IMG/VR virus record: IMGVR_UViG_3300020037_007643
Length of the DNA: 64,000 nt
Direction: 5' to 3' (one strand)
From: a virus
Each line of letters opens with the position of its first letter. Within the stretch, counting starts at the first letter, position 1. This document shows positions 25,368-43,899 of this stretch, piece after piece. The translations under genes and the position numbers were made by a program. Under the pieces are notes generated by a model, which was not told the origin of the DNA, made no database searches, and saw nothing but the letters and a program-made list of their open reading frames with translations.

Positions 25368-25390
25368 ATTGTTTTTATGTTTTTATGTTA

Positions 25391-25852
25391 TTAATTAAAT
25401 ATTTTTGGGTGTGTCTTTGATAATAATACCCTTACTATTTGTGCTATTGTTTCAGTTAACTCCTCTACTGAATCTCTTATCTCCCTCTTGGTTGAATGCC
25501 TGTTTAGGGCTAACTCACCTAATTTATTTGTTAAAATGTGACTTATTTCATGAACAAATCCATTTAACACTGTTGCAAATTCCCCCCTCTTAAATAATTC
25601 TTGTGCTAATGTATGAATAGTTACTGATGCTGTTTTATATGTATCACTATACACAATTGAAAACATCACAGTATCATCATCGCAATCACTCTTCGTCACC
25701 ATATAAAAACTTATTTTATTGATTCCGTGAGCATCAAGAATTATGGGTAAATTTGACACTAGAAACTTTTCTATATCATTCCTCGGATCGGCATGATATA
25801 CATCTTTCTTCTTATCCTTGTTCTTTATCATATTTACATTATACTCCCCCAT
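25391..25852 (-). CDS. Hypothetical protein with an HExxH-like motif (VHEISH)
   Basis: The true start is probably MIKNKDKK at about 25831, 6 nt after the conserved promoter. The track start at 25852 lies upstream of that promoter. Confidence 0.5.
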   Translation of the reverse strand: MGEYNVNMIKNKDKKKDVYHADPRNDIEKFLVSNLPIILDAHGINKISFYMVTKSDCDDDTVMFSIVYSDTYKTASVTIHTLAQELFKRGEFATVLNGFVHEISHILTNKLGELALNRHSTKREIRDSVEELTETIAQIVRVLLSKTHPKIFN

Positions 25853-25866
25853 ACTAAAGAAGTCAA
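25838..25866 (-). promoter_or_regulatory. Conserved promoter copy (TTGACT-N17-TATAAT), leaderless configuration
   Basis: Reverse complement reads TTGACTtctttagtatgggggagTATAATgtaaatATG. Confidence 0.65.
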
Positions 25867-25869
25867 GTA

Positions 25870-26361
25870 CTACCTAACATTCTTATACTCAAACCATATT
25901 ATGTCAAGGAGGGTATCTTTAAAATCACTCTTCTTTTTCCCATCCTTCCAGTCTTTTGGTGAGTGTGAGATCTTTTTTTTAAAATCTATTTTTTCACCCC
26001 GTAGTATCTCTAGTATTTGAAAGTATTTATTATTATAACAATCTCTTGCTGAAAATATTAAACATTCACTTGATTCTCCTGTTTTATTGTTTGTTACATT
26101 ACCTTGTGTTGTGTACATAAACATCTTAACATTTGCTTTGTTTTGTTTTAATACTTTCCCAGTTTCTTTTAATATTCTATCAACCTCCCCGGCTACATAA
26201 TTGTAAAGCGGTATGTCCATTATTGAAACAGTTTTATTTTTATCTAAGATCACTGCATAACAGATAGGTAATAGTTTGTTTCCATTTTGCACGGATTCTT
26301 TATTTTTACTTGTTATGTAATCGTAGATTTCCTTTACTTTACTTGAGATTCTTTTTGACAT
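25870..26361 (-). CDS. Hypothetical protein
   Basis: 163-aa ORF. Confidence 0.5.
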   Translation of the reverse strand: MSKRISSKVKEIYDYITSKNKESVQNGNKLLPICYAVILDKNKTVSIMDIPLYNYVAGEVDRILKETGKVLKQNKANVKMFMYTTQGNVTNNKTGESSECLIFSARDCYNNKYFQILEILRGEKIDFKKKISHSPKDWKDGKKKSDFKDTLLDIIWFEYKNVR

Positions 26362-27368
26362 TTTATTTCTTCTTTAATTGCGTTAAGTACGGCCTCGTAA
26401 GTATCTCCATTCTTAATAAGGAAGTTTTTTGCATTATTGCGTCCAACTCCAAGTTTCGTATCATTAAATGAATAGGTTGTACCTGTCTTATTAATGACCC
26501 CGATTTTCTCCCCATAATCCAAAGCATCGCCATGTAAATCCAATCCTTTACCATAATATAATTCAACTGATGTTTTCATAAAAGGGAATCCGACTTTATT
26601 TTTTACCCCTGTAATATTCAAGAAATTTCCTATCTGCTTATCGTCTGAATCAACTATTTTTTCACCCTTAGATACCTCAAGTCTTACTGATGCAAAAAAT
26701 TTCAACGCCTTTCCTCCAGGAGTGGTTTCTTTTTTTCCATATATAACACCAATCTTCTCTCTAAGTTGGTTTATGAATATTACAATTGTTTTAGATCGAG
26801 ATATTGAACCAGTTAGTACTCTAAGAGCAGCACCGAGCTTTCTTGCTTGAAGACCCATTGTATCCTTAAGAAAATCTCCTTCAATTTCTGTCATTGGAGC
26901 CATAGCCGCAACACTATCTACAACAATGATATCAAATGCATTTGTATCAACAAGCTCCCTGAGTGTTTCCATTGCAGCTTCTAAGTGTAATGGTTGTGTA
27001 ACAAGTAGTTTTGATGTATCAACACCAATAGAAGATGTGTAGCGTGGATCATAAGAGAATTCAGCATCAATAAGGGCAGCTCTTCCACCTTGTCTTTGAA
27101 CTTCCGCGATTAAATAATGAGACAGTGTTGATTTTCCACTAGACTCCTGACCAAACAATTCTATCATTCTTCCCCGTGGAATACCTCCACAGCCAAAAAC
27201 TGAATCTAGTCCAAAACTCCCAGTTGGTATTGCTTTTACTTCTGAAACATCAAGATCCTCATCGACAATAACCATGTCGTTTCCATATTTTTTTTGCATC
27301 CGAGCCATTACATCTTCAACAAGCTCGTTTGGGTTATTTACATCTTCTAATTCTTTTTTCTTTGCCAT
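26334..27368 (-). CDS. recA: RecA recombinase
   Basis: GLDSVFGCGGIPRGRMIELFGQESSGKSTL ... IVVDSVAAM aligns along its length with bacterial RecA. Confidence 0.9.
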   Translation of the reverse strand: MAKKKELEDVNNPNELVEDVMARMQKKYGNDMVIVDEDLDVSEVKAIPTGSFGLDSVFGCGGIPRGRMIELFGQESSGKSTLSHYLIAEVQRQGGRAALIDAEFSYDPRYTSSIGVDTSKLLVTQPLHLEAAMETLRELVDTNAFDIIVVDSVAAMAPMTEIEGDFLKDTMGLQARKLGAALRVLTGSISRSKTIVIFINQLREKIGVIYGKKETTPGGKALKFFASVRLEVSKGEKIVDSDDKQIGNFLNITGVKNKVGFPFMKTSVELYYGKGLDLHGDALDYGEKIGVINKTGTTYSFNDTKLGVGRNNAKNFLIKNGDTYEAVLNAIKEEIKCQKESQVK

Positions 27369-27374
27369 ATTTTT

Positions 27375-27563
27375 TTATTTTAAACTAATAATATCACTCT
27401 CTGGTACACTAGGGCAATACCATTGTCCAGGTGATTCAATCCTGTAGTGCCATGTTTTGTTATGTTTATACCCACTAATCACCTTAACCATATACATTAA
27501 TCCATCTCTATCTATATTTTCATACAAAACAATATCTCCTATTCTATATTTGGGTTTCTTCAT
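27375..27563 (-). CDS. Small hypothetical protein
   Basis: 62-aa ORF. Confidence 0.4.
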   Translation of the reverse strand: MKKPKYRIGDIVLYENIDRDGLMYMVKVISGYKHNKTWHYRIESPGQWYCPSVPESDIISLK

Positions 27564-27673
27564 ATCTCTCTTGAATTATCATAATAATCATCTTCTTCGT
27601 CATCTTCAATATATTCACCAAAGTCAGCATCAAAACTATCTTCCTCTTCAAAATCTAAATAATCATCATTCAT
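27560..27673 (-). CDS. Small highly acidic protein (about 37 aa)
   Basis: Hand-read ORF MNDDYLDFEEEDSFDADFGEYIEDDEEDDYY...; coordinates approximate. Confidence 0.3.
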   Translation of the reverse strand: MNDDYLDFEEEDSFDADFGEYIEDDEEDDYYDNSREI

Positions 27674-27854
27674 GCTATTTTATACAATTAATTATTAGTA
27701 AATTTTATTTTATCTTTATATCCATACCACAAGAGATGCATGTAACTATTTCTCCCTCTTCAAGATAATAAGACTCATTCTCTGCTTCACATTTTTTGTA
27801 TGGACAATAAAATCTTTCTACTGTCTGTACGTCATTCATTGATATTGTTTTCAT

Positions 27855-28652
27855 TTACTTACCGCCATATATTATCTCATCAATGTATAAAATTTCATCG
27901 TCCCAGGCTCCGAGTATAAACATAAAATTTCCAAGTGGAGAGTTTGCTAACAAGATAGGATCTCTGTCTTTCTTTGTTTGTTCTTTAACTTCTGTGTCTT
28001 TTACAACAAGTGTAAAGATTGGTGTGTCACCAGTTATTGCTTTGTATGCTTTTGTGTAACGATCCATTTCTTGGATACCCTCGTTCGGAACAAGAGTGTA
28101 ATATTGCTTCAAGGGTACAACTTTTAATTTATATCTTTTACATAAATCAACAACTGCCTCATTTGTTGTCATGGCCCAATCTAATGGATTTTTAGTTTTT
28201 GTCTTAAGGTATTTTAATCTATTCTTTAGATAAAAAACAGAACGATGTTCATCTTTCAAATGCTCATCACTAAGGTGGTCTTTAAGTATATTTATTCTTT
28301 CTGTGACAACTTTTATTTTCTCTTCTAAGTTTTCAAAAGATATTTCCGGTGACTCTCTTTTGATTTCCTCAAAAACCGCCTTTGGCTCGACAGCTATTCT
28401 ACTATCCTCTTGCTTTTGCTGACCAGTAAATACAGCAACAGAATTACTACCAGTATTCACACCAACATTTCCAACATCCGAGGAATCAACCATAAAACTA
28501 GAAATAGGTGTCCACCCACCGAACTCTGGCTGGTTTATAAGATCACCATTACCTGTTCTTACTCGTATGTTATTTGTAGTAAAAACAAACCCTTTCTTTT
28601 TATCTCCTAATATTATTTTTTTAAAAAAATTTATCATTTTATATTTTACCAA
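27855..28652 (-). CDS. Hypothetical protein
   Basis: 265-aa ORF. Confidence 0.55.
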   Translation of the reverse strand: MVKYKMINFFKKIILGDKKKGFVFTTNNIRVRTGNGDLINQPEFGGWTPISSFMVDSSDVGNVGVNTGSNSVAVFTGQQKQEDSRIAVEPKAVFEEIKRESPEISFENLEEKIKVVTERINILKDHLSDEHLKDEHRSVFYLKNRLKYLKTKTKNPLDWAMTTNEAVVDLCKRYKLKVVPLKQYYTLVPNEGIQEMDRYTKAYKAITGDTPIFTLVVKDTEVKEQTKKDRDPILLANSPLGNFMFILGAWDDEILYIDEIIYGGK

Positions 28653-29352
28653 CTTCTAGTCGGTCATTCTTAATTATTAAATACTCTTTATACCTTAATG
28701 AATCTACTAATATTATTCCTTCATCAAACTTTGGTGGTTGAAGCCACGTTTCTATACCCCTTGTTCCTGTATGTCCAACTACATGAATAAATCCTGGAAC
28801 TCTCACCTTGTCTAGACTCTTCGGTCTTATCCATATAGGTGACTGTGTTATGTCATCACCTGATGAATCTGATCCATTAAAATTAAAAGATTCAGGTCTA
28901 CTTATAAATAATTTAGTTAACGCAACATCTGGTGTGTATTCTAGATCCAACATACTCTCAACGTGTGACTCAAGCCATTTTTGAGAAACACCAGCATGAG
29001 TGAACAAGAATTTATTATTAAGATACGATATTTGCATCAAGTTGGTATCTATCGCATTTTGTATACTTGTACCGATCTTTAGAGCGTAATTTCTTTGATA
29101 TCCTGAATATTTTTCTGTTTCTGATATGTAATGAAAACAATGGTTCCCGATCAACAACACAACCTTTTCTGGATTTTCTTTTTTGAATTTAATTATCTCT
29201 ATCCAGTTATCAAACTGTTCATAGAATGGTATATCAAAACTATCAAAATAATCTCCCATAAATATTATCTTATCGGCATCTTTCTCTTTCTCTGTAATTT
29301 TTTTCCAGATATCCCTCCCGTGAATATCTCCTATGACTACAACTTTATTCAT
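28639..29352 (-). CDS. Calcineurin-like metallophosphoesterase (Ser/Thr phosphatase or ApaH-like)
   Basis: GDIHGR, GDYFD, GNHC and GHTG motifs. The likely start MNKVVVIGDIHG lies 6 nt after a promoter copy. The track start at 29394 is a non-ATG read-through. Confidence 0.75.
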   Translation of the reverse strand: MNKVVVIGDIHGRDIWKKITEKEKDADKIIFMGDYFDSFDIPFYEQFDNWIEIIKFKKENPEKVVLLIGNHCFHYISETEKYSGYQRNYALKIGTSIQNAIDTNLMQISYLNNKFLFTHAGVSQKWLESHVESMLDLEYTPDVALTKLFISRPESFNFNGSDSSGDDITQSPIWIRPKSLDKVRVPGFIHVVGHTGTRGIETWLQPPKFDEGIILVDSLRYKEYLIIKNDRLEVGKI

Positions 29353-29358
29353 AATTCC

Positions 29359-29387
29359 ATTATACTCCCCTATATTAAAGAAGTCAA
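29359..29387 (-). promoter_or_regulatory. Conserved promoter copy, leaderless configuration
   Basis: Reverse complement reads TTGACTtctttaatataggggagTATAATggaattATG. Confidence 0.7.
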
Positions 29388-29393
29388 GTATCA

Positions 29394-29627
29394 CTAAACT
29401 ATCTTGCCGAAAAAGTAACCGGCTATCAATGCCTTCTTTCTCCAGTCTGGTTCATTATCAATTAAATGTTGCAAATGTGATCTTGTTATAAATTCTTCTT
29501 TCTCTGATATTGTTCTTTGTACTTTACCCTGTTCTGCCTCTTTTAACATAACAAGAACAATCTCATCTATTTTTTCAAGTGGAACATCAAAACTTTCTAG
29601 TATTTGTGTTATTTTCTTTTCATCCAT
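29394..29627 (-). CDS. Hypothetical protein
   Basis: 77-aa ORF. Confidence 0.4.
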   Translation of the reverse strand: MDEKKITQILESFDVPLEKIDEIVLVMLKEAEQGKVQRTISEKEEFITRSHLQHLIDNEPDWRKKALIAGYFFGKIV

Positions 29628-29629
29628 AA

Positions 29630-29818
29630 TTAATATCTTTGACCTTCTAATGATAAGTCACCTGCATCAATAGCCATATCCCTACTTACATACCTAATCT
29701 CTTCTTCATTTTCACATCCACAATGAATCAACTCCGGCATATTTTGTTCTTCTTGTGAAAATAAACTTGGATCTTGTTGCCATTCTCCACACGCTCCACA
29801 TCTCTGTAAATTATTCAT
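29630..29818 (-). CDS. Small Cys-containing hypothetical protein
   Basis: 62-aa ORF. Confidence 0.35.
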   Translation of the reverse strand: MNNLQRCGACGEWQQDPSLFSQEEQNMPELIHCGCENEEEIRYVSRDMAIDAGDLSLEGQRY

Positions 29819-31565
29819 CGTCTATTTCATCCAACATACTTTTTGTAACAACAACCACTTCTTTCTCTTCTTTTTCTTCTGGAACTTGATACGATGATGG
29901 AGTTGTTGTACTTGTCATTTCATTCCATCCTTCGACTGCTTTCTTTTCATCCTCGTTTCGATCTGAGTAAGCGAATCTTTCATTTATCATCGTAAACCAT
30001 GCTGATAGTGTTTGTCCTGTCTTACGATTTTTTGCTAATGTTATTTTTGTATATTCAGTAAAATAACCCTTTGAATCTTTACCTGTATCTCTTTCTCTTT
30101 CTATTAAAAACACAAGGTCACTTTCTTGAGCTACCCCCGCGGTGTCCTTTATACTTTCAATATCCAATGCTCCGTTTGTTTTTCTTACGTGTACAGGTAG
30201 AACAATTATAACTTCTTCACTTAATGCTATTGTTTTTAAGTCTCTCACTATTTGTGTTACAAAAGTAGCATGGTTTTGTGACATATTCTTTCCTAGTATT
30301 CCATTTGTTTTTGGAAGAAGAAATCCGAGGTGGTCTATCACAACAACCTTTATATTAAATTTTTCTTTTGCTTCTTTAACTTTTGCCTCAACCCATGCAA
30401 CATTTCCTGATGTGTGTTTGGCTGGTATAACAGTAATATCATCTTCTGTCATTCCCATTGTTTTAAACTTCTTCCAAAGGTGACTTGGTAAAAGTTCATA
30501 AGAGAACCAAAGTACAGGTGCCTTTTTGGGTCCTCTGATAAAACTAAGTGTCCAATCTTGAGCAATAGACGATTTACCCTCACCTGTTCTTCCCGCAACC
30601 GAAACAAGGTCACCTGGTGAGGCACCGCCCATTATCAAGTCATCGAAACATTTCATTTCGAGTGGGTAAACATCATCTTGGTCAACAACTTGTTCAGAAG
30701 CTACAATTGAGATGTGTTTTACTTCGTCACTACCGTCAGAAAGGTGCTCGAGGAGGGCGTTATTCGGCTCATTTTTGACCGTAGAGGCCGTTAATGGAGT
30801 TTTTCGGGTCTCAATACCTTTTATGCTCCTAAACGATGCGTAGAGCTCTCCTGTGGACAATGGAGGGGTGTTTTTCTGGTTAGCTTTCACGATAATCTCC
30901 CATCCGTATGTCTCCCAGTGTGCAGGGTGTATTCTAGATAGAACCTTTCCAATAAACCTAGTTATTTCTTCATTGCGAACACCCTTGCCGTAACCTGGGT
31001 ATGATTCAAGAAGGAAGAATGCATCTGATTGTATTTCTTCAGAAGCTGGTTCTGATTTTTCTGTTTTAATCTCTACCTCTTTTTTTGTCCCACCCAATAG
31101 AAGAGCCCTAGTTTCTGGTGACATTTTTACAATAGGACAATCATTTAAAATTGAATATTCTCCTTTTGTTGTTTTTGAACCAACCGTTACACAGTACCCA
31201 CCTTCTGAACGTATATCCACTAATGGGAATATTCTAACTGCATTCTTGAATCCTTCTTCGTGCTGAAAATAAGCATGAACTCCACCAGACCCAGTACGGA
31301 CCTTAAATGTTTTATCTTTAATCAAATCAAAATCTGCACCATTCTCGAAATCAACTACAAGTAAATTACTTAACTTGCCAGTAGCTACACCAAGTTGCAT
31401 TGATGGATATATTTCAAGCCATTTTTTTATCTGTTCAAGATCAGCCTTTTCTGTCTGGTATTTCTTCCAAGGAATAAGAGGAACTTTATCTTCCCCTACG
31501 GGGATTAAAGACCACCCGATAGAAATTGCTCTCTCTGCTATTTTTAATAATTTTTCATTTATCAT
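29811..31565 (-). CDS. Primase-polymerase (prim-pol) N-terminal domain fused to a DnaB-like helicase
   Basis: N-terminal bifunctional primase/polymerase-like region. C-terminal Walker A VSVAGRTGEGKSS and Walker B VVVIDHLG. Confidence 0.75.
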   Translation of the reverse strand: MINEKLLKIAERAISIGWSLIPVGEDKVPLIPWKKYQTEKADLEQIKKWLEIYPSMQLGVATGKLSNLLVVDFENGADFDLIKDKTFKVRTGSGGVHAYFQHEEGFKNAVRIFPLVDIRSEGGYCVTVGSKTTKGEYSILNDCPIVKMSPETRALLLGGTKKEVEIKTEKSEPASEEIQSDAFFLLESYPGYGKGVRNEEITRFIGKVLSRIHPAHWETYGWEIIVKANQKNTPPLSTGELYASFRSIKGIETRKTPLTASTVKNEPNNALLEHLSDGSDEVKHISIVASEQVVDQDDVYPLEMKCFDDLIMGGASPGDLVSVAGRTGEGKSSIAQDWTLSFIRGPKKAPVLWFSYELLPSHLWKKFKTMGMTEDDITVIPAKHTSGNVAWVEAKVKEAKEKFNIKVVVIDHLGFLLPKTNGILGKNMSQNHATFVTQIVRDLKTIALSEEVIIVLPVHVRKTNGALDIESIKDTAGVAQESDLVFLIERERDTGKDSKGYFTEYTKITLAKNRKTGQTLSAWFTMINERFAYSDRNEDEKKAVEGWNEMTSTTTPSSYQVPEEKEEKEVVVVTKSMLDEIDDE

Positions 31566-31582
31566 GTATCTCGTTTGTTAAT

Positions 31583-31780
31583 TTATAAACTCGTAGATTT
31601 ACTATCTTTTTTCTCTTTACTTTTTATTTTTCTATCTTGTGATAATCCGTCATTCTTACAATGAATATCACAAAAATCACCAGCTGAAACTTGGTCTCCC
31701 CAAATAACGTTATAACAAAAACGACATCTCTTTACTGAATATGGACCCTTTTTGTCCACCAGAATATAATCACTTATCAT
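31583..31780 (-). CDS. Small zinc-binding protein
   Basis: CRFC...CDIHC. Confidence 0.35.
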   Translation of the reverse strand: MISDYILVDKKGPYSVKRCRFCYNVIWGDQVSAGDFCDIHCKNDGLSQDRKIKSKEKKDSKSTSL

Positions 31781-31956
31781 ATTTCATTTAATTTAATTAT
31801 TAAAAATTCTTATCAAACAAATAATCTTCAATCAACTCACGTCCAACATCATTCCACCATTGGACGTATAACTCAGCATCTGAGTCGTTATTAAAAGACA
31901 TTAAGATTTCATTTTCCTTAACTGTTGTCACTATTTCTTTTTTTAATTCTATTTTA

Positions 31957-32514
31957 TTATTCATTTCTTTTATTATTACCTTCTAATTTTATAATTTCAC
32001 AATCCTCAACAATTCTACCAACTATTCTATCTCCAACTTTTTCTTTTAATTCGTTAAGGTCCAGATTACTCGTATAAGTTGTTGGGTACATCCATTCGTA
32101 CCGGTCATTTATAATCTGAAACATTTTTACAATCACCGCCTCACTTGATTTTTCAACACCAACATCGTCTATAATTAAAAGTCCCTTATACTCACTTAAA
32201 TCTTTTAGAAACTGCATCATTTCAACCGTTGATTCATATTGGGGACTTTCGTAATGGGGGAGACCTGTAAATGTTCCCTTTATTGCTTCAACAATATCTA
32301 GGCCCCTCACTACGACACACGGAAGGCCGTGTTCCGTAACTAGGTTATAAATTGCATATGCAATGTATGTTTTCCCAACTCCTGTGTCACCAAAGATATA
32401 TAAACAAGGTGGTTCTCTTTTTTTTATAGATTCTTCGAGCATTTTATATATACCAGAATTTATATTTTTAACGGAAGAATCTTTGTACCGAGGTTTTATT
32501 TGTGTCTTAAGCAT
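31957..32514 (-). CDS. DnaC/IstB-like helicase-loader ATPase
   Basis: Walker A GDTGVGKTY and Walker B LLIIDDVG. Confidence 0.75.
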   Translation of the reverse strand: MLKTQIKPRYKDSSVKNINSGIYKMLEESIKKREPPCLYIFGDTGVGKTYIAYAIYNLVTEHGLPCVVVRGLDIVEAIKGTFTGLPHYESPQYESTVEMMQFLKDLSEYKGLLIIDDVGVEKSSEAVIVKMFQIINDRYEWMYPTTYTSNLDLNELKEKVGDRIVGRIVEDCEIIKLEGNNKRNE

Positions 32515-32515
32515 A

Positions 32516-33289: not shown

Positions 33290-33318
33290 AATCTTTTAAG
33301 ATTTAAACTTGTAATTAC

Positions 33319-33347
33319 ATTATACTCCCCTATATTAAAGAAGTCAA
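33319..33347 (-). promoter_or_regulatory. Conserved promoter copy
   Basis: Reverse complement reads TTGACTtctttaatataggggagTATAATgtaattacaag. Confidence 0.7.
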
Positions 33348-33360
33348 CATCATACCCAGG

Positions 33361-33793: not shown

Positions 33794-33805
33794 TATTTAT
33801 GTAGT

Positions 33806-35486: not shown

Positions 35487-35532
35487 GGAATTGTAATAGT
35501 CGAAGTATTACAATATTAATAATAAAAATTAA

Positions 35533-36387: not shown

Positions 36388-36388
36388 T

Positions 36389-36697: not shown

Positions 36698-36705
36698 GCT
36701 ATTAT

Positions 36706-37296
36706 ATGGAAAATGAATATAACCCAATGATCGGTATGACACTTGATCATATTAATGACGCTGTGAGGAATACTCTTGGTGGGGGGGGTATTACCAGTCA
36801 CCAGATTGGTGAAATACAAGAAATACCATACACAGATCCCGCTATGGTTCAATTTCAAGATTATGAAGAAGCTTTGCGTCCACGTATAAATGACCCCATT
36901 GTGACTGTTGACCCATCTAATAATTATTATTTCACATCTGTCCCTATTCGTTTTTTGGGTCATTCCAATATTGTTATAGGTGATGTGCCTCGTGGTATTA
37001 CATTAGTTGGAAATAATAAATTATTTTATTATGTAGATGGGGTACAATACACACATCAATTATCACTTGCTCAAATTAGTTCACTTCGCCGTATTTTGGA
37101 AAACCCATCTTTGTCACAACCATCATATAGCCCACCTGTGCCTCCTGGTCCAGAGGGTGTACGAACACGAGAAAGATTTATGTATAACGAGGCATTAAAC
37201 TCTTTAGGTATATTACCAGAAAATGAAACAAATAATCAATCAAACAATGAAACAAACGAACAAGAAGAAGATGAAGAAGAAAGTGAATATTTCTAA
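36706..37296 (+). CDS. Hypothetical protein with an acidic C-terminus
   Basis: 196-aa ORF. Confidence 0.5.
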   Translation: MENEYNPMIGMTLDHINDAVRNTLGGGGITSHQIGEIQEIPYTDPAMVQFQDYEEALRPRINDPIVTVDPSNNYYFTSVPIRFLGHSNIVIGDVPRGITLVGNNKLFYYVDGVQYTHQLSLAQISSLRRILENPSLSQPSYSPPVPPGPEGVRTRERFMYNEALNSLGILPENETNNQSNNETNEQEEDEEESEYF

Positions 37297-37666
37297 AAAT
37301 AAAATAAGAGTATTTACTAGTGGTGCTAGTAGGAATTCAGATGCAGGCAAATTTGATTACGAAGGATTTAATAATCCAGTTGTTGATCACTCTTTTGCTA
37401 AATACATGCACGGCCATAGGATGATGGAAGATGGATCATTGAGAGATAGTGATAATTGGCAGAAAGGTATACCTAAAGACGAATTGGCAAAGTCTTTAGT
37501 AAGACACATTAATGATTTTAGATTAATACATCGTGGCTATAAGGTATTAGATGAAAAGGGCGATGAGGTAACTATTGAAGATTGTCTCAATGCTATTAAA
37601 TTTAATTCTAATGGATACTTACTTGATATACTTAAGGGAAGTAAAATAATAAAAAGAGGTGAATAA
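37223..37666 (+). CDS. Hypothetical protein (true start likely the internal ATG near 37271)
   Basis: 147-aa ORF whose 5' end overlaps the previous gene. Confidence 0.45.
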   Translation: MKQIINQTMKQTNKKKMKKKVNISKNKIRVFTSGASRNSDAGKFDYEGFNNPVVDHSFAKYMHGHRMMEDGSLRDSDNWQKGIPKDELAKSLVRHINDFRLIHRGYKVLDEKGDEVTIEDCLNAIKFNSNGYLLDILKGSKIIKRGE

Positions 37667-38132
37667 AATAAATGAAAAAATAAAGGTGTTGTTTCTTGAT
37701 ATGGACGGTGTAGTGAACAGTGAGGCTTGCTACAAACGTGGTTTATTTAAAACAGATTTCCCTGTTGATGCATATATGGCTTTTCTTGTAGGTAAAATAC
37801 AACTAGATACAAATTGCAAAGTTGTTTTATCATCATCGTGGCGACACCACCCTGAAAGTGTTGAGCAAATAAATAAACAACTTGTACCATTGTTGGACAT
37901 AACAGGAAGTGAACCGCTTGACCCAAGCAGACCAAGAGGAATAGAAAACTGTCAACGTGGAAGAGAAATTAAAGCATGGTTGGATAAACATCCAGAGGTT
38001 GAGAAGTATGCGATACTAGATGATGAAAATGATATGCTACCAGAGCAACAAGAAAACTTCTTTCAGACGTCTTGGAAAACTGGAATTACAAAAGAAATAG
38101 CTGATGATGTAATTAAACATCTCAGTGATTAA
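37659..38132 (+). CDS. HAD-superfamily phosphatase (polynucleotide 3'-phosphatase-like)
   Basis: Motif I LFLDMDGVVNS (DxDGV). Confidence 0.55.
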   Translation: MNKINEKIKVLFLDMDGVVNSEACYKRGLFKTDFPVDAYMAFLVGKIQLDTNCKVVLSSSWRHHPESVEQINKQLVPLLDITGSEPLDPSRPRGIENCQRGREIKAWLDKHPEVEKYAILDDENDMLPEQQENFFQTSWKTGITKEIADDVIKHLSD

Positions 38133-38135
38133 AAT

Positions 38136-38384
38136 ATGGTAAATTTAAAGAAAAATACAAAAAATCATTACGCCCCTAAAAGATGGAGTCTTGATAAGGT
38201 GAGTAATAAAATAAAGGGTTTATTAAATAAGATATGGAATTCTGAAAAAGGAAGTAAAGAGTGGTATTTATATCAATTCAAAAGAGAATTAGAACAGATT
38301 AAAAAGCACGTTATTTTCCTTAATCAGATAATAGAGTTTTACGAGAAGTCTGATCAGACAAATAATAAAAGAAAGGGAAAGTAA
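38136..38384 (+). CDS. Hypothetical basic protein
   Basis: 82-aa ORF. Confidence 0.45.
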   Translation: MVNLKKNTKNHYAPKRWSLDKVSNKIKGLLNKIWNSEKGSKEWYLYQFKRELEQIKKHVIFLNQIIEFYEKSDQTNNKRKGK

Positions 38385-38406
38385 AACTTATGGTAGAATA
38401 ATAGTC

Positions 38407-38435
38407 TTGACTTCTTTAGTATAGGGGAGTATAAT
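38407..38435 (+). promoter_or_regulatory. Conserved promoter copy that drives the ORF-free structured region and the tRNA array
   Basis: TTGACTtctttagtataggggagTATAATggatttgtaag. Confidence 0.7.
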
Positions 38436-38441
38436 GGATTT

Positions 38442-39470
38442 GTAAGTGATGAGAATTAGTGGGATTCTGGTGAATGAAATAAACCAGGTTAAATCATATT
38501 ATGATTTATTTTGTTAAAGTCCCATTAGTTATGCGAGATTGGTATATACGGTATTACGTCAGTTTTCCAAACTGAAAAAAAGAGTCCAAGTCTCTTATCT
38601 CGCACATGTGTTACATTACTGTAACACTCTCATTATTGCAGTGGACAGAACAGCTAAGGCTTCTCTTATCCATTGTCGCAATAATGAGGATATGTGGTGT
38701 TGTCGTTATGATTGACTGAAGTTTTGTTTATATAGCACTCAGCAATATATCGTACTCACATATCTTGAGTCGATGATGTAATAGCAGCATTTCGGTCTCC
38801 AAAACCGTTCGTCCTAGTGCAAGTCTAGGTCGGCTCGCAGTTCATTAAAATTAAATGTTTCGCAGGCGGACAAGGCTTCTATAGAGCCCAGATAAAAATG
38901 GGGGCTGTAGTGAGGCACGGTATAGTTGTAACTTTGGAGTGAAACCAAGGGGTATACTTGAAACCGTGATGGGTAGCGCGTGGCCTGCACTTGGGCGTGA
39001 CGAATTTCGATTTAGTTGTTTATTTTAATTTTGCATAGCAGAGTATGATCATATCTCTTAAAAGTGATCTCTTGATAAACTCAAACCAGTCTATCGTTTC
39101 TCCGTTTTTCTCTTTCGCAGACTTCGGTCTCGTAACAGCCTAGCGGTGTGTACTCCACATAACTCTTGCAGTGTGGATGTACGCATAATATTTGCAAGAT
39201 AGCTTTCGGAGTTTTTTTATTATACGGAAGTGATAAAAAAATAAAATATGCTGGTGAACCAAGCGGAAACCGCTGATGTATATTCAGACAGGCAATGTAG
39301 ATTAAGTTAAGATACCGATTAAAGATTAGGGTGTAACTCCCTACACGTCCACCTGAAGGAAGATTGGGGCGCGGGTTGACTGACCCAATAATGTACACAA
39401 AGCTAGTACCAGAGAAAAGATTGCCGGTAGAAATACTTAAAGGCATATACCACAGGCTTAGCAAGCATGG
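38442..39470 (+). ncRNA. Candidate large structured noncoding RNA (about 1 kb, ORF-free, G+C visibly higher than the flanks)
   Basis: Only spurious ORFs, and G+C visibly above the flanks (no composition computed). Several tetraloop hairpins are present (AGAC-TTCG-GTCT, AGCGG-AAA-CCGCT, GTGTA-ACTCCC-TACAC, GGGT-TGACTG-ACCC). It lies directly downstream of a consensus promoter and upstream of tRNA-Pro. Confidence 0.35.
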
Positions 39471-39476
39471 TTCACC

Positions 39477-39550
39477 ACAGAGATTGTTGAAATGGTATCA
39501 TATGCCCCTTGGACGGGTAAGTCGGGAGTTCGATTCTCTCATCTCTGACC
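39477..39550 (+). tRNA. tRNA-Pro (anticodon UGG)
   Basis: Acceptor CAGAGAT/ATCTCTG, anticodon stem TGCCC/GGGTA, loop CTTGGAC, T-arm GGGAG-TTCGATT-CTCTC, encoded CCA. The D-stem is weak. Confidence 0.5.
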
Positions 39551-39575
39551 ATTATTAATTAATTTTTAAAACAAT

Positions 39576-39746
39576 ATGGAAAATAACGAAAATGTTGTAG
39601 TTGAAGAAACTGTAGAAGTTGTAGACGCACAGCCTGCAATGGAAGAAGTTACTGAAACTGTTGATTCTGTTCAAGAAGCTGTAGAGTCTATTGATTCTAT
39701 GCCTGAAGATCCACAGGATGCAGTGAAGTGTGATTCTTGTGAATAG
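39576..39746 (+). CDS. Small acidic peptide (56 aa), questionable
   Basis: Runs ATG to TAG and reads MENNENVVVEETVEVVDAQPAMEEV... It lies between tRNA-Pro and tRNA-Met. Confidence 0.3.
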   Translation: MENNENVVVEETVEVVDAQPAMEEVTETVDSVQEAVESIDSMPEDPQDAVKCDSCE

Positions 39747-39754
39747 TTAGTTTT

Positions 39755-39774
39755 TAGGTAGAGAAATCTACCTA
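39755..39774 (+). other. Perfect 8-bp hairpin with a GAAA tetraloop
   Basis: TAGGTAGA-GAAA-TCTACCTA, immediately 5' of tRNA-Met. Likely an RNA processing or structural element. Confidence 0.45.
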
Positions 39775-39777
39775 AAT

Positions 39778-39849
39778 AGCGGGCGGGGGGTCAGGGATCC
39801 CACAAGGCTCATAACTTTGAAAAATCCAGATCGTTACTGGGGCCCGCTA
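39778..39849 (+). tRNA. tRNA-Met or Ile2 (anticodon CAU)
   Basis: Acceptor AGCGGGC/GCCCGCT, anticodon stem CAAGG/CTTTG, loop CTCATAA, T-arm TCCAG-ATCGTTA-CTGGG. The T-loop is non-canonical (A54), which lowers confidence. Confidence 0.45.
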
Positions 39850-39869
39850 CTAGGTGAGTAATAAAAATT

Positions 39870-40292
39870 ATGAAAAAGAAATGTTATAAATGTAATTTAA
39901 ATTTATCAATTGATAAATTTAGTAAAAATAAATCTAAAAAAGACGGGTTAGGTTCTATGTGTAAAAAATGTTGGAATGATTATTATAAACATATTTACTA
40001 TTTGAACGGTAATGAAAAATCTAGACTTAAAATAAATAATAAAAAACGTTCAGAGTATATTCATAGAATAGTAAAAGAAGCTAAAAATAAACCATGTTTT
40101 GATTGTGGAATTATATATCCTTATTATGTTATGGATTTTGATCATATACGTGATAAAAAATTTCTAGTGTCTAATGCGGTTAATATAAAATGTTCCATAA
40201 AAATTATTTTAGAAGAGATTAAAAAATGTGAAGTTGTTTGTTCTAATTGTCACAGGATAAGAACTTTTAAAAGATCAAAAAATAGTGGGTAG
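39870..40292 (+). CDS. HNH endonuclease
   Basis: Cys-rich N-terminus, DFDHI...N and CSNCHRIR (His-Me finger with CxxC zinc ligands). Confidence 0.65.
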   Translation: MKKKCYKCNLNLSIDKFSKNKSKKDGLGSMCKKCWNDYYKHIYYLNGNEKSRLKINNKKRSEYIHRIVKEAKNKPCFDCGIIYPYYVMDFDHIRDKKFLVSNAVNIKCSIKIILEEIKKCEVVCSNCHRIRTFKRSKNSG

Positions 40293-40354
40293 TGTAATGG
40301 TAACACGATTGTCTTTGAAACAATAGATTCTAGGTCCGACCCCTAGCCCGCTAG
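40283..40354 (+). tRNA. tRNA-Gln (anticodon UUG)
   Basis: Acceptor TAGTGGG/CCCGCTA (one G-U), D-stem GTGT/ACAC with loop AATGGTA, anticodon stem ATTGT/ACAAT, loop CTTTGAA, T-arm CTAGG-TCCGACC-CCTAG, G73 and encoded CCA. The 5' end overlaps the stop codon of the HNH gene. Confidence 0.55.
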
Positions 40355-40358
40355 CCAT

Positions 40359-40437
40359 GCGTATGATGTTCAATGGTTGGACAGTAGACTGTAAATCTAT
40401 GCCTTCGGGAGAGTTTGTTCGATTCAAACCATACGCA
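40359..40437 (+). tRNA. tRNA-Tyr (anticodon GUA), class II (bacterial type)
   Basis: Acceptor GCGTATG/CATACGC, anticodon stem GTAGA/TCTAT, loop CTGTAAA, a 12-nt variable arm GCCTTCGGGAGA, and T-arm GTTTG-TTCGATT-CAAAC. Confidence 0.65.
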
Positions 40438-40464
40438 CTGTTTTATAAATATAATATGTAAAAT

Positions 40465-40752
40465 ATGCCCTGGAAAAATATAGAAACAAAAAGAAAATAT
40501 CAAAGAGAATGGTGTGCAAGAAGACGTTTTGAGTTTTTTAAAGATAAGAAATGTATTAAATGTAATTCTAAAGAAAATCTCGAACTTGATCATGTTGATC
40601 CATCAAAAAAGGTTACACATAGAATTTGGAGTTTTTCGTTAGAAAGAAGAGAATCTGAGGTTTCTAAGTGTCAGATATTATGTGTATTATGTCACAGGGA
40701 AAAATCAAAAATAGATGTTAAGAAAATAAGAGAAAGTAAATTACAAAGTTAA
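40465..40752 (+). CDS. HNH endonuclease
   Basis: CIKCNS...LELDHVDP...CVLCHREKS. Confidence 0.6.
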   Translation: MPWKNIETKRKYQREWCARRRFEFFKDKKCIKCNSKENLELDHVDPSKKVTHRIWSFSLERRESEVSKCQILCVLCHREKSKIDVKKIRESKLQS

Positions 40753-40765
40753 CCAATAAAAAATT

Positions 40766-41002
40766 ATGTCAAAAGTTACAGTATACAGTACACCAACATG
40801 TAAGTATTGTGTTGTTGCAAAAGATTTCTTAAAAGAAAACGGAGTTGAATTTGAGGAAGTTAATGTTTCAGAAGATGCAGATAAGAAAAAAGAAATGATT
40901 GAAAAAAGTGGGCAACTAGGAGTTCCTGTTATCACGATTGACGATAAAGTTATTGTTGGGTTCTCTAAAGATGAATTAACCAAAGCATTAGACTTGAAAT
41001 AG
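40766..41002 (+). CDS. nrdH: Glutaredoxin/NrdH-like redoxin
   Basis: 78 aa with VYSTPTCKYCVVAK (CxxC in a thioredoxin fold) and GVPVITIDDKVIVGF. Confidence 0.8.
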   Translation: MSKVTVYSTPTCKYCVVAKDFLKENGVEFEEVNVSEDADKKKEMIEKSGQLGVPVITIDDKVIVGFSKDELTKALDLK

Positions 41003-41165
41003 TTTTTATATCGTGGAATACTTGGGGTAAGAGGCCGTAAGGTACACACCTGGAGAAATCCGTAAACCTAACACGATACAGTGAGAAAACAAAAACAACA
41101 AAAACTCACTAGAAGTTTATCGAGCCATGAAATAGTCTTCTTTAAAAAATATTGGAATGGCAAAT

Positions 41166-41240
41166 GCCCCTGTAGACCAACTGGAAGGAGTCGCACGTCT
41201 TAGAAACGTGATAGTATGTGTTCGAATCACATCGGGGGTA
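41166..41240 (+). tRNA. tRNA with anticodon UAG (formally Leu, CUA/CUG), class I architecture
   Basis: Acceptor GCCCCTG/CGGGGGT (two G-U pairs), perfect anticodon stem CACGT/ACGTG, loop CTTAGAA, 5-nt variable loop, T-arm ATGTG-TTCGAAT-CACAT, A73. Confidence 0.5.
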
Positions 41241-41261
41241 CTAGTTTTTAAATTTAAATAT

Positions 41262-41335
41262 CCGCCCATATCCCAATCGGCAGAGGAAGTGGACTTAAAC
41301 CCCACACAGTGCTAGTTCGAATCTAGCTGGGCGGA
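41262..41335 (+). tRNA. tRNA with anticodon UAA (formally Leu, UUA/UUG), class I architecture
   Basis: Acceptor CCGCCCA/TGGGCGG, anticodon stem GTGGA/CCCAC (A-C at the loop-closing pair), loop CTTAAAC, 5-nt variable loop, T-arm GCTAG-TTCGAAT-CTAGC, A73. Confidence 0.5.
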
Positions 41336-41336
41336 C

Positions 41337-41410
41337 AATGTAGAGAAACCAAATTTGATACTCATGCGGTCAGAGCTATGAGCTGACAAGAATGGTATTG
41401 CTCTACATTA
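41337..41410 (+). other. Long hairpin with a perfect 9-bp stem between two tRNAs
   Basis: AATGTAGAG, a 55-nt interior, then CTCTACATT. The interior has an AGCT-ATG-AGCT sub-hairpin. No T-loop, so it is not a canonical tRNA. Confidence 0.4.
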
Positions 41411-41411
41411 C

Positions 41412-41486
41412 CGGTCTGTAGTCCAATTTGGTAGAGACACTCCCCTCAAAAGGGATCGAGTACTGGTTCAAATCCAGTCAGACCGA
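41412..41486 (+). tRNA. tRNA with anticodon CAA (formally Leu, UUG), class I architecture
   Basis: Acceptor CGGTCTG/CAGACCG, anticodon stem (C)TCCC/GGGA(T), loop CTCAAAA, 5-nt variable loop, T-arm ACTGG-TTCAAAT-CCAGT, A73. Confidence 0.5.
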
Positions 41487-41488
41487 CT

Positions 41489-41701
41489 ATGTACAAAAGA
41501 TTAAAACCACAAGATTTCTTTTATGTTTTTGGTTTACCAAAACAAAAGATACAAATAGTTAAAAGGAAGAAAGAAGTAAAAGTTTTTGTTGAATTAAAGT
41601 GTGATTTTTGTAAATCAACTTTTAGAGTTTCTGAATATATTGCCAGTATAGGCAGGAAGTTTTGTTCTAAGAAGTGTGCATCCCACAGAACAGAGATTTA
41701 G
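41489..41701 (+). CDS. Small zinc-ribbon protein
   Basis: CDFC...CSKKC. Confidence 0.4.
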   Translation: MYKRLKPQDFFYVFGLPKQKIQIVKRKKEVKVFVELKCDFCKSTFRVSEYIASIGRKFCSKKCASHRTEI

Positions 41702-41724
41702 GGTCTTTATGTTATAATGTTTAA

Positions 41725-42339
41725 ATGCAAATACCATTTAAACAAACCCCTAATTACTCAATAGGGAAAGAAAAAAAGATTGGGTGGGTGATTCACGGTA
41801 CGCTAGGTGCTTATAAGGGTGCTATAGAATGGTTATCTAACGGTAATCGTGAAAATCGTTCGTCAGCTCATTTTGTTATAGGAAGAAATGAAGGTGAAAT
41901 TTTTCAGCTTGTAAAAATACAGGACGTTGCATGGCACGCTGGTAATGTATCAAATCCCAACGAACGCGCTAGAAAGGTTCTACCTAAGAAATTAGATGGA
42001 AACTTTGATAATCCTAACAAATTCTTTGTTGGAGTAGAAATGGCTTGGGGGTATGATGTTAATGGCGATGGGAAAATAACCGCCATAGATAAAACACTCA
42101 CAGAATGGCAATTAAAAGCCCTCTGTGAGCTCCTACAAGCCTCACAGAGCGAAGTTCCATTAAAAGCTGATACAATACTCACTCACACAGATATAGCCTC
42201 TTATAAGGGCGATAATCTATCTGATGTTGTTCAGGATGTTATAAAAAGGATAATTCCACAAGTTAAGGAAGAAATGATCCAAGTTATGGTTCCTAAGTCT
42301 AAATTGGAAAAAGTATTAAAGTACATGAATTCAATATAG
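41725..42339 (+). CDS. N-acetylmuramoyl-L-alanine amidase (Amidase_2/PGRP-type endolysin)
   Basis: AHFVIGR..GEIFQLV...AWHAGN...VGVEM motifs resembling the T7-lysozyme/PGRP fold. Confidence 0.75.
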   Translation: MQIPFKQTPNYSIGKEKKIGWVIHGTLGAYKGAIEWLSNGNRENRSSAHFVIGRNEGEIFQLVKIQDVAWHAGNVSNPNERARKVLPKKLDGNFDNPNKFFVGVEMAWGYDVNGDGKITAIDKTLTEWQLKALCELLQASQSEVPLKADTILTHTDIASYKGDNLSDVVQDVIKRIIPQVKEEMIQVMVPKSKLEKVLKYMNSI

Positions 42340-42344
42340 TCAAG

Positions 42345-42373
42345 TTTACTTTTTCAATATACTAGAGTATAAT
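42345..42373 (+). promoter_or_regulatory. Promoter variant (TTTACT-N17-TATAAT)
   Basis: TTTACTttttcaatatactagagTATAAT. Followed by a 6-bp hairpin GGATAA...TTATCC in the leader. Confidence 0.5.
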
Positions 42374-42433
42374 GTAATCATAGGATAAGAAATTAACGTT
42401 TTATCCTCGTGGGCTAATCCACTTAAAATTGTT

Positions 42434-42619
42434 ATGAAAGACGTAAAACCGTGGTATCAAAGTAGAACTGTAGGGATTGCGATCCTGCAGGGAATTGCTG
42501 GAGTTATGGCTGCTATTTTTGCAGTAGACCCAACTATTCAAACTATCGGATTCATTGCTGTTGGAAAATCTGTTATAGATTTTATGCTAAGAGCAAGTAC
42601 TTCGAAAGAGATCGTATAG
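42434..42619 (+). CDS. Holin-like small membrane protein
   Basis: 61 aa with one or two hydrophobic segments and a charged C-terminus. It sits adjacent to the endolysin. Confidence 0.4.
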   Translation: MKDVKPWYQSRTVGIAILQGIAGVMAAIFAVDPTIQTIGFIAVGKSVIDFMLRASTSKEIV

Positions 42620-42642
42620 CCTGTCGGGGCTTCCCCGATACT

Positions 42643-43170
42643 ATGTTAAGAACATTTATATTATTTGTACTAATATCTGTAATAGGATATGGTGCAATAT
42701 CATACGCACAAACTCTCGATGTCCCCATAAAGGATGAAAACATTAAAGAGTCAATTGTGTTAGAGTTAACACCCGAACAGGTCTTGAAGGAAAAAAGAGA
42801 CAAAATGACCATTCCTCAAATTATTGAAGAAGTGGCTCCAATGTTTAATCAAGACCCTAAACTTATATCAAAAATAGCGTACTGCGAAAGCAAATTTAAA
42901 AACGTTGTTCATGATGGCGGTCATGGTAAGGGTGTAACAGGTATCCATAAAAAGACGTTTGATTTTTGGTTGGTTAAATATAAGAAGGAAAATAATGAAA
43001 GTTTAGATTACAATTCTTCTTATGATCAAATAAAAATGATGTCTTGGGCTTTTTCTAAGGGTAACTCTTATAAAAACCAATGGTCAACATATGTTTCATA
43101 TAAAAATGGTGGAACATATTCTTTCTACTCTAAGCTTCTAAAGAAAAACTTTACAGTTACATGTAAATAG
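42643..43170 (+). CDS. Secreted protein, possibly a transglycosylase-like (Rpf-like CES motif) cell-wall enzyme
   Basis: N-terminal signal peptide, then IAYCESKFKN..DGGHGKGVTGI. Confidence 0.4.
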   Translation: MLRTFILFVLISVIGYGAISYAQTLDVPIKDENIKESIVLELTPEQVLKEKRDKMTIPQIIEEVAPMFNQDPKLISKIAYCESKFKNVVHDGGHGKGVTGIHKKTFDFWLVKYKKENNESLDYNSSYDQIKMMSWAFSKGNSYKNQWSTYVSYKNGGTYSFYSKLLKKNFTVTCK

Positions 43171-43243
43171 TTTTACAAAAAGATCTCGCAACAAATAACA
43201 CATTTTATTTTATAAAGTATTTAGTGGCTACAGATCATTTTTT

Positions 43244-43272
43244 AATAACCCTTTCTTGAGGGTTATTTTTTA
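43244..43272 (+). terminator. Rho-independent terminator
   Basis: AATAACCC-tttcttga-GGGTTATT followed by TTTTTTAT. Confidence 0.6.
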
Positions 43273-43288
43273 TGGTATAATATAATAA

Positions 43289-43525
43289 ATGAAAAAGATT
43301 GTACTTTTAGCCGTAATGCTCTCTGGGAGGGTGTTGGCACAGAATTATCACTGGAGTTTCCGTGGTCACCATTATGTTGACCAACACCTTTATCGCAACT
43401 CATCAAATGTTGCGTTTAAATTTTTATTGAATTGTGAGAATAGGAGGTTTTGTTACAAGGTTGGTTATGTGTATCACCATAGACATCACGGTGAAAAGTT
43501 TGTCTCATTTGTTTATAAGTTTTAA
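43289..43525 (+). CDS. Small secreted His-rich protein
   Basis: Signal peptide MKKIVLLAVMLSGRVLA, then HHRHHGE. Confidence 0.4.
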   Translation: MKKIVLLAVMLSGRVLAQNYHWSFRGHHYVDQHLYRNSSNVAFKFLLNCENRRFCYKVGYVYHHRHHGEKFVSFVYKF

Positions 43526-43529
43526 TATA

Positions 43530-43558
43530 TTTACTTTTTTAATATACCGGAGTATAAT
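43530..43558 (+). promoter_or_regulatory. Promoter variant (TTTACT-N17-TATAAT)
   Basis: TTTACTtttttaatataccggagTATAATgtaatt. Confidence 0.5.
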
Positions 43559-43580
43559 GTAATTAATAAATAAACAGATT

Positions 43581-43814
43581 ATGAGTTTAGAAATTGAAAA
43601 TGATCCAGACAAAGAAATGGATCCAGAAACAACAAGAGTTCCGCCAATCGTGAACTCAATTCGCTCTTTAAATATTTCGTTGAGTATCTTAATTTACGAA
43701 GATCGTTTAACCAAAGAAGACCTTGAATGGTTTTCTAAAGACGAACTGTATGAAATTAAGTGTCACTCTATGAGGCCAGAAATCGCACTAGAAGCAGCCA
43801 AGCTTTGTGCCTAA
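43581..43814 (+). CDS. Hypothetical protein
   Basis: 77-aa ORF. Confidence 0.4.
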   Translation: MSLEIENDPDKEMDPETTRVPPIVNSIRSLNISLSILIYEDRLTKEDLEWFSKDELYEIKCHSMRPEIALEAAKLCA

Positions 43815-43870
43815 AGCAATCCCCTGAAAACTATTTGTTTTTGGGGGATTCACTATTTATGTAAAAGTAC

Positions 43871-43899
43871 TTGACTTTTTTAATATAGGGGAGTATAAT
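43871..43899 (+). promoter_or_regulatory. Conserved promoter copy
   Basis: TTGACTtttttaatataggggagTATAATggaagtataa. Confidence 0.7.

Follow-up and report, generated by a model that had tools for sequence, protein, structure and literature searches.

Repeated TTGACT-17-TATAAT elements, likely promoters for a host RNA polymerase, in the replication region of an uncultivated phage

Background

The middle promoters of phage phi14:2 are extended, resemble -35/-10 elements, are used by the E. coli sigma70 polymerase in vitro and are often located before tRNA genes (bioRxiv 10.1101/2020.03.07.982082, Drobysheva et al.). The early promoters of phage T4 have a consensus that is conserved beyond the sigma70 elements, and such early promoters are thought to out-compete those of the host (PMC2988021). 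Here we describe a repeated promoter-like element, TTGACT-17-TATAAT, in the IMG/VR record IMGVR_UViG_3300020037_007643. The window, as we call the whole stretch analysed, is 64,000 nucleotides of phage DNA with 32% G+C, and is part of a longer metagenome contig (79.9 kb) of the Joint Genome Institute (JGI). The element occurs nine times among replication, recombination and tRNA genes, and we consider it likely that the host RNA polymerase, carrying a primary sigma factor of the sigma70/sigmaA type, uses the nine copies as strong promoters. Phage promoters of this kind, repeated, extended, near-consensus and serving the host polymerase, are well known; new is that they are found in an unstudied clade with a predicted gp66-type polymerase of its own.

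The window resembles phi14:2 and the crassvirus middle and late promoters in several ways. Both have an extended, conserved multi-block motif that lies between genes, reads in the sense direction and is often found ahead of tRNA genes, and both encode a giant RNA polymerase of the gp66 type, which in the window is predicted from a structural model. P070 of phi14:2 also has ACTTGACTTT in common with the window motif. The phi14:2 motif, however, ends in TAnnTTTG, the Bacteroidota type, whereas the window has TATAAT followed by GG. Read directly, the corresponding sequences are TATATTTG, TACTTTTG and TAGTTTTG in phi14:2, and TATAATGG or TATAATGT in the window; with no TAnnTTTG, a promoter of the Bacteroidota type is ruled out by this comparison. 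The modules served are also different, since the phi14:2 motif belongs to the gene-expression and virion modules and the window motif sits in the replicative module. The two giant proteins lack homology at the sequence level and have DQDGD here and DFDID there.

The promoters of the N4-type virion polymerase are short DNA hairpins with a stem of 5-7 bp, a loop of 3 nt and conserved flanks. A giant, presumably virion-borne RNA polymerase together with a small set of conserved promoters is common to N4 and the window, but the window motif is bipartite with sigma70-like hexamers. A hairpin promoter of the N4 type was rejected, as DNA folding gave minimum free energies of 0 to -2.9 kcal/mol with z-scores that were not significant.

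Many near-consensus sigma70 copies with extra conserved positions are also a feature of the early promoters of T4, T5 and T7 (A1). T4 adds UP and TGn elements, both of which are absent from the window promoters. In the window, the extra conservation lies instead in the spacer, as a T-tract and a purine block, and in a GG at -6/-5.

Sequence of the promoter family

A pattern search of the window for TTGACT-N17-TATAAT, allowing at most one mismatch, gave 12 matches compared to 1.5 expected from shuffles. Nine of these, with the conserved spacer core TATAGGGGAG or a variant, make up the family:

25838-25866, minus strand: copy 1, TTGACT-17-TATAAT; fills the 38-nt gap after a 163-aa open reading frame (ORF; stop at 25870); ATG at 25831-25829
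29359-29387, minus strand: copy 2; fills a 41-nt gap; ATG at 29352, 6 nt past TATAAT
33319-33347, minus strand: copy 3; after a terminator-like hairpin (33386-33373); leader of about 22 nt to a 257-aa gene
33765-33793, plus strand: copy 4, weaker, -10 TATACT; putative promoter of the SNF2 helicase gene; ATG at 33806
35458-35486, plus strand: copy 5; -35 overlaps the SNF2 stop codon; a hairpin after +1, then a Band-7/SPFH gene at 35533
38407-38435, plus strand: copy 6; heads the RNA-gene operon
42345-42373, plus strand: copy 7, weaker, -35 TTTACT; upstream of small ORFs at 42434 and 42643
43530-43558, plus strand: copy 8, weaker, -35 TTTACT; upstream of a 77-aa ORF at 43581
43871-43899, plus strand: copy 9; after a strong terminator-like hairpin (43818-43850); upstream of an exonuclease gene at 43936

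The six copies not marked as weaker, three on each strand, are near-identical. The -35 element, close to TTGACA, is TTGACT in seven of the nine copies and TTTACT in the other two. TATAAT is the -10 element of eight copies and TATACT that of one, and the spacer is exactly 17 bp in all nine. Taken together, the window motif matches TTGACA/TATAAT at 11 of 12 positions. The GG follows directly after the -10 element, and the seventh nucleotide past it is a purine in eight of nine copies. The spacer has G-A and not T-G at -15/-14. Similarity between the copies ends sharply at approximately -38 and +1.

A 47-nt position-specific scoring matrix (PSSM) was built from the nine copies and run on both strands of the window with a shuffle control. 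The nine copies scored 37-65 bits. No tenth copy was found in the window; everything else scored 8 bits or less, the shuffle maximum being 7.5. An initial annotation of the sequence had listed nine copies, and the pattern search and the PSSM recovered all of them at the right coordinates. The matrix found no copy in the virion gene block (1-14021), and there is none in the 10 kb past the right end of the window (L028). Inspection by eye of the gaps in the other gene blocks revealed no repeated motif that could represent a late or other promoter class. The promoter family is confined to 25.8-43.9 kb.

We also observed a second, weaker class of promoter-like sites, consisting of intergenic extended -10 elements (TGnTATAAT) without a -35 element. 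These are found at 441, 5030, 41713 and 43276 on the plus strand and at 33717 on the minus strand. In three cases an ATG follows after 6-8 nt, so that the genes starting at 5044, 41725 and 43289 are further candidates for a leaderless or short-leader mRNA.

Placement and putative transcription units

The genes of the window are organized in four blocks:

1-14021, plus strand: gene block 1, the virion block
14037-33682, minus strand: gene block 2
33806-49921, plus strand: gene block 3
from 50233 on, minus strand: gene block 4

The motif-bearing region encodes replication and recombination proteins, including a PrimPol-DnaB helicase, an IstB/DnaC-like helicase loader and the SNF2 helicase. Also encoded are RecA, SbcC, SbcD, a metallophosphatase, an exonuclease, RuvC, dUTPase, GroEL and a Band-7 protein. 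Copies of the motif are found next to the genes of the PrimPol-helicase, SNF2, RecA, the metallophosphatase and the exonuclease, and next to those of the tRNAs.

Non-genic gaps account for 12.3% of the region at 25-45 kb and hold all nine copies; among the 16 gaps that are 35 nt or longer, nine have a copy. All nine copies are also oriented with their own gene block. This agrees with the earlier description of a promoter family co-oriented with the downstream genes. Only copy 5 touches a gene, with a 4-nt overlap with the SNF2 stop codon. The gaps holding copies 1 and 2 contain little besides the promoter. Terminator-like hairpins are located ahead of copies 3 and 9.

The 257-aa gene behind copy 3 is the first of an operon with the helicase loader and PrimPol-DnaB. 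In the operon behind copy 6, a tRNA-Gly gene (38533) is followed by an extra tRNA, a tmRNA-like RNA and seven more tRNAs, extending to 41487. Starting from a control region near 33.7 kb, the promoters would split the part of the genome with the replication, recombination and tRNA genes into short, diverging transcription units.

Conservation in related phages

There is no close relative among cultured phages, where the best tblastn identity is approximately 31%. Megablast of the region at 25-45 kb against GenBank phages and tblastn of the giant protein against phages gave no match. The exact motif was not found in IMG/VR or GTDB genomes, and the IMG/VR relatives of the PrimPol protein are distant only. 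Homologs of the SNF2 protein, however, number in the hundreds in metagenomes, many of them on contigs of about 90-105 kb, and represent a large uncultivated clade.

Close relatives with 86-99% nucleotide identity were found in metagenome contigs, and these have all nine copies in syntenic positions. The motif carries 2 substitutions in 423 bases, compared to 52 in approximately 2900 aligned bases overall. None of the insertions and deletions (indels) relative to the close relatives is located at a promoter copy. In a comparison of the window with L008 and L010, which are about 95% identical to it, we noted insertions of approximately 2.7, 0.4 and 0.5 kb at about 31800, 38550 and 43170, respectively, and of about 1.1 kb near 30140.

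For the distant comparison we used ten loci with 46-74% SNF2 identity. Every one of these has its own near-invariant set of TTGAC(T/A)-16/17-TATA(A/C)T promoters, with a spacing of 16-17 bp throughout. Several loci have them at junctions shared with the window, upstream of SNF2, the 257-aa gene and the metallophosphatase gene, and the SNF2-junction promoter has the same position in L013, L021, L022 and L014. The promoter consensus sequences compare as follows:

Window: acTTGACTTcTTTAATATAGGGGAG TATAAT GGAATT
L021: acTTGACTTTTTTAACATAGGGGAG TATAAT GGAATT
L013: TTGACTTTTTTAACGTTGAGGTA TATAAT GGATTT
L022: atacTTGACTTTATAAGTCGATAGGAG TATAAT GGC
L014: acTTGACTTTTGGAATAAGAAGGTA TATAAT GG
L023: acTTGACAAGTA....GA.AGGAG TATACT
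L027: cacTTGACAAGT....AGT..TATGG TATAAT, with a true TGn extended -10

Both hexamers, their spacing and an 'ac' ahead of the -35 element are common to the genomes, and many also have the GG directly after the -10 element. The purine block, RGG(A/T)R at -17 to -13, is found in nine of the 11 genomes. The rest of the spacer is specific to the genome; the mean identity of spacers is 0.76 when they come from one genome and 0.44 when they come from different genomes.

Predicted leaderless and short-leader gene starts

At copies 1 and 2 the ATG is located exactly 6 nt past TATAAT, and at copy 4 the SNF2 ATG is located 12 nt past TATACT. The longest-ORF starts of the first two genes, ATG 25852 and GTG 29394, fall inside the promoter, the former in the spacer. 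We regard these two starts as artefacts because of this location and because the N-termini of orthologs agree with the downstream ATGs. The corrected genes are:

25391-25831, minus strand: 146-aa gene, corrected start 25831
28639-29352, minus strand: metallophosphatase gene, 237 aa, corrected start 29352, N-terminus MNKVVVIGDIHG

The Pfam alignment of the metallophosphatase (PF00149, Metallophos) begins at residue 3. The N-termini of its orthologs, MKIIAIGDIHG in L015 and MKAKEFKKIVCIGDIHG in L021, align with MNKVVVIGDIHG. In L021, the start chosen by the gene caller is the ATG located 6 nt past the TATAAT of an almost identical promoter. The L015 ortholog of the 146-aa gene has its own TTGACA-16-TATAAT, a start 10 nt past the -10 element and a comparable N-terminus. 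For SNF2, the N-terminus MYINYEKTEYYEF agrees with the family consensus, and the start is located 10-13 nt past the -10 element in L021, L022 and L014 and farther away in L013.

The prediction that the starts at 25831 and 29352 are leaderless is supported by the promoter spacing and by the ortholog N-termini. The initial annotation had proposed a leaderless arrangement at these two genes, and nearly so at SNF2, and had questioned the six-frame start codons; the spacing and the corrected starts agree with both proposals. Read-through from upstream units could produce leadered copies of the same genes besides.

A Shine-Dalgarno-like motif precedes only 9 of the 93 ORFs, and the sequence before start codons is A-rich. 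Initiation without a Shine-Dalgarno sequence thus appears to be the rule in this genome, and mRNAs that are leaderless or have a leader of about 5 nt would fit this. We considered whether read-through transcripts could use the GGGGAG of the spacer as their Shine-Dalgarno sequence. This is unlikely, as the GGGGAG is located 12 nt from the ATG, such motifs are scarce genome-wide and the block is kept at copies with distant starts.

The mRNA of lambda cI transcribed from PRM is a known leaderless mRNA. As in lambda, the start codon is located at the predicted transcription start without a Shine-Dalgarno sequence. The two cases differ in that the arrangement in the window is predicted from spacing, and in that the promoter would be very strong, whereas PRM is weak and regulated.

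Likely reader of the promoters

A bipartite motif of two hexamers, spaced by 17 bp and agreeing with the consensus at 11 of 12 positions, is characteristic of a holoenzyme with a primary sigma factor. Hexamers and spacing are kept between genomes whose proteins are approximately 50% identical while the spacer changes, and this favours readout of the sigma70 type. Further support comes from the TGnTATAAT of L027 and from the stand-alone extended -10 sites in gaps of the window. GG at -6/-5 fits the discriminator contact of sigma region 1.2, and the purine seen 7 nt past the -10 element in eight of nine copies is in line with the same reader. The sequence of the elements, their placement and strand, their conservation between genomes and the gene starts are read from the DNA; which polymerase reads the elements, where exactly it starts, how strong the promoters are and when they are used we infer from such features.

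We suggest that sigma region 4 would bind TTGACT, region 2 would bind TATAAT at the optimal 17-bp spacing and region 1.2 would contact the GG. Transcription would start at the purine 7 nt past the -10 element. At two genes this purine would be the A of the ATG, giving leaderless mRNAs, and the SNF2 mRNA would have a leader of approximately 5 nt. The uniformity of the spacer within a genome most likely reflects homogenisation of the whole polymerase-contact surface of about 45 bp. The copies could be kept alike by selection for the sequence that works best in that host, by recombination among them, or by both. The lineage-wide purine block may add a contact.

Some points weigh against the host polymerase as reader. 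Known contacts of sigma70 account neither for the purine block nor for the genome-specific spacers. To our knowledge, a host that does not use Shine-Dalgarno sequences and yet has canonical TTGACA/TATAAT promoters would be unusual among the well-studied phyla. The phage also appears to encode a gp66-type polymerase itself, and phi14:2 uses its virion polymerase, not the host enzyme, to transcribe the homologous replicative module (bioRxiv 10.1101/2020.03.07.982082).

The consensus promoters and leaderless starts could aid host prediction, as a host with canonical -35/-10 elements and little use of Shine-Dalgarno sequences would be expected. Metagenome-assembled genomes of relatives are labelled 'Candidatus Paceibacterota' in two cases (L017, P0236) and 'Bacilli bacterium' in one (P0017); these labels are no proof of the host. 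If the Paceibacterota labels are right, the window would give a first view of promoter grammar and of leaderless, Shine-Dalgarno-free initiation in hosts of the candidate phyla radiation. The results indicate no new mechanism. They do provide a map of putative transcription units and corrected gene starts for a large clade without a cultured member.

A possible additional recognition determinant

Spacer and flank conservation had earlier been taken to suggest a determinant beyond the known sigma70 contacts. The genome-specific spacers and the widely shared purine block are in line with this and make a further determinant possible; the window, searched for sigma, MerR-like and other helix-turn-helix proteins, yielded no candidate factor. 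In the form we considered, the host polymerase would work with a phage-encoded specificity factor that reads the genome-specific spacer or the purine block. Such a factor could activate the promoters, appropriate the sigma factor or act as a shut-off repressor, and would mark the phage promoters or time their use. We hold this to be rather unlikely, although spacers that are alike within and different between genomes, and a purine block that recurs across the clade, speak for it.

Additional support is found in the relatives. A small MerR-like gene beside SNF2 goes together, in a sister subclade, with a palindrome over the -35 element (ACTTGACAAGT); the palindrome is present in seven of eight loci with the gene and in none of seven without it. 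This suggests a regulator-operator pair, and factor-operator pairs are plausible in this clade, but the split could simply reflect phylogeny. The sister loci concerned are L023, L024, L025, L027, L017, L019 and L026; the -35 element is embedded in the palindrome, and the MerR-like gene encodes 70-80 aa and is usually located just upstream of SNF2. Small Sigma70_r4-like proteins are encoded by L022. In the window itself, no sigma, MerR-like or other helix-turn-helix protein was seen among the top 25 matches listed, and a MerR search gave no match at an E value of 1 or less.

The DUF5659 protein (33401-33682) was considered as a reader of the spacer. In all relatives its gene occupies the divergent control region; the gene is monocistronic with its own extended -10 promoter and terminator. 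The protein is 99% identical to its L021 ortholog at the amino acid level, with third codon positions only 56% identical. A fold search with its model, which has a predicted local distance difference test score (pLDDT) of 88.6, gave no informative match. DUF5659 divergence was not significantly related to spacer divergence (partial Mantel r 0.26, p 0.08). Thus, in spite of its suggestive position, we rejected this candidate.

A broader version would be that each phage of the clade has its own promoter dialect, in which spacer and purine block are read by a co-evolving phage factor or through an unusual contact of the host polymerase. We find this doubtful. If true, a phage could label its own promoters. 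The genome-specific spacers and the shared purine block form a natural experiment on which promoter positions are selected beyond the hexamers.

The predicted giant RNA polymerase

The window also encodes a giant protein, outside the promoter set:

7632-14021, plus strand: giant protein, 2129 aa, N-terminal HNH motif, C-terminal predicted two-barrel RNA polymerase fold

Sequence methods found only the HNH motif, near residue 150-190, and gave no match to any known polymerase, phi14:2 gp66 included. The family conserves R.P...N...K...D.DGD, with DQDGD at aa 1686-1690 in the window. An AlphaFold model of residues 930-2129 has a pLDDT of 79.9 and a predicted template modelling score (pTM) of 0.76. 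The best Foldseek matches of this model are phi14:2 gp66 (6vr4_A, E value 7e-10), QDE-1 (E value approximately 1e-9), RDR2 and P23-45 gp96. The model thus supports the earlier suspicion of a phage RNA polymerase, and indicates that the phage encodes a two-barrel, single-chain enzyme of the gp66/QDE-1 type. Approximately 30 homologs of 1460-3340 aa were found in metagenomes. We also noted that DQDGD has a glycine where crassviruses have Ile or Val.

It had further been proposed that the phage polymerase itself could read the motif. The motif would then be the promoter of the giant enzyme transcribing the replicative module, with the likeness to sigma70 promoters being coincidence or mimicry. 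This is in line with the predicted gp66-like fold and the kept DxDGD catalytic motif, and with phi14:2, where the whole replicative module is early and made by gp66 (bioRxiv 10.1101/2020.03.07.982082). However, the early transcripts of phi14:2 have no common upstream motif, and gp66 activity was shown on single-stranded or denatured DNA (same source). Two hexamers with a fixed 16-17-bp spacing and an 11 of 12 match to TTGACA/TATAAT are the signature of the sigma70 family. The ten diverged genomes conserve the hexamers and not the spacer, although their giant proteins are only 19-60% identical. Furthermore, L027 has the TGn extended -10, and the motif lacks the hairpin of N4 virion-polymerase promoters. 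These observations speak against the proposal, and we consider it improbable.

With the host polymerase as the likely reader, the two polymerases may share the work differently in this clade than in phi14:2, or the giant enzyme may act on other genes. The clade would then pair a gp66/QDE-1-type polymerase with sigma70-type promoters on the replication module, unlike the division of labour in phi14:2. If true, the phage would differ from crassviruses in giving its replicative module to the host polymerase despite a gp66-type virion polymerase.

Very improbable is that the repeats are recombination or protein-binding sites (iterons, ends of mobile cassettes) with incidental promoter-like hexamers: the phage encodes RecA, SbcCD and RuvC-like functions, and repeated early-promoter cassettes are reported to drive gene shuffling in T4-type phages (PMC2839356), but the indels do not coincide with motif copies, the similarity has sharp ends, and co-orientation, intergenic placement, exact 17-bp spacing and hexamers kept across genomes are expected of promoters and not of recombination sites. 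The T4-type promoter-early stem-loop (PeSL) cassette was rejected, as the copies share no conserved stem-loop and the indels at approximately 31.8, 38.55 and 43.17 kb are located elsewhere.

RNA genes and other features of the window

ARAGORN predicted eight tRNAs in the RNA-gene cluster of the motif region. Two further RNA genes are located within an 872-nt ORF-free stretch downstream of copy 6:

38767-38837, plus strand: extra tRNA, missed by ARAGORN
38993-39354, plus strand: transfer-messenger RNA (tmRNA)-like RNA, Rfam RF00023, 46.3 bits compared to a gathering score of 47, E value 6e-17

Two long stretches, 57434-58182 and 60987-64000, have no convincing ORFs. They have a higher G+C content (37% at 62-64 kb) and contain GC-rich hairpin-like sequences. 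Rfam gave no match in either stretch at the gathering threshold. They may represent non-coding RNAs or a genome-end region.

At 51415-54339 on the minus strand, a phiEco32-like COOH-NH2 ligase gene (PF14395) adjoins the gene of a 401-aa protein with a weak, sub-threshold glutamine-amidotransferase match. The ligase is also found in the relative L023. Just upstream of the giant polymerase gene, at 1231-5019 on the plus strand, a 1262-aa protein with three PG_binding_1 repeats is encoded. The protein probably acts on the cell wall, as a virion protein or an ejected one.

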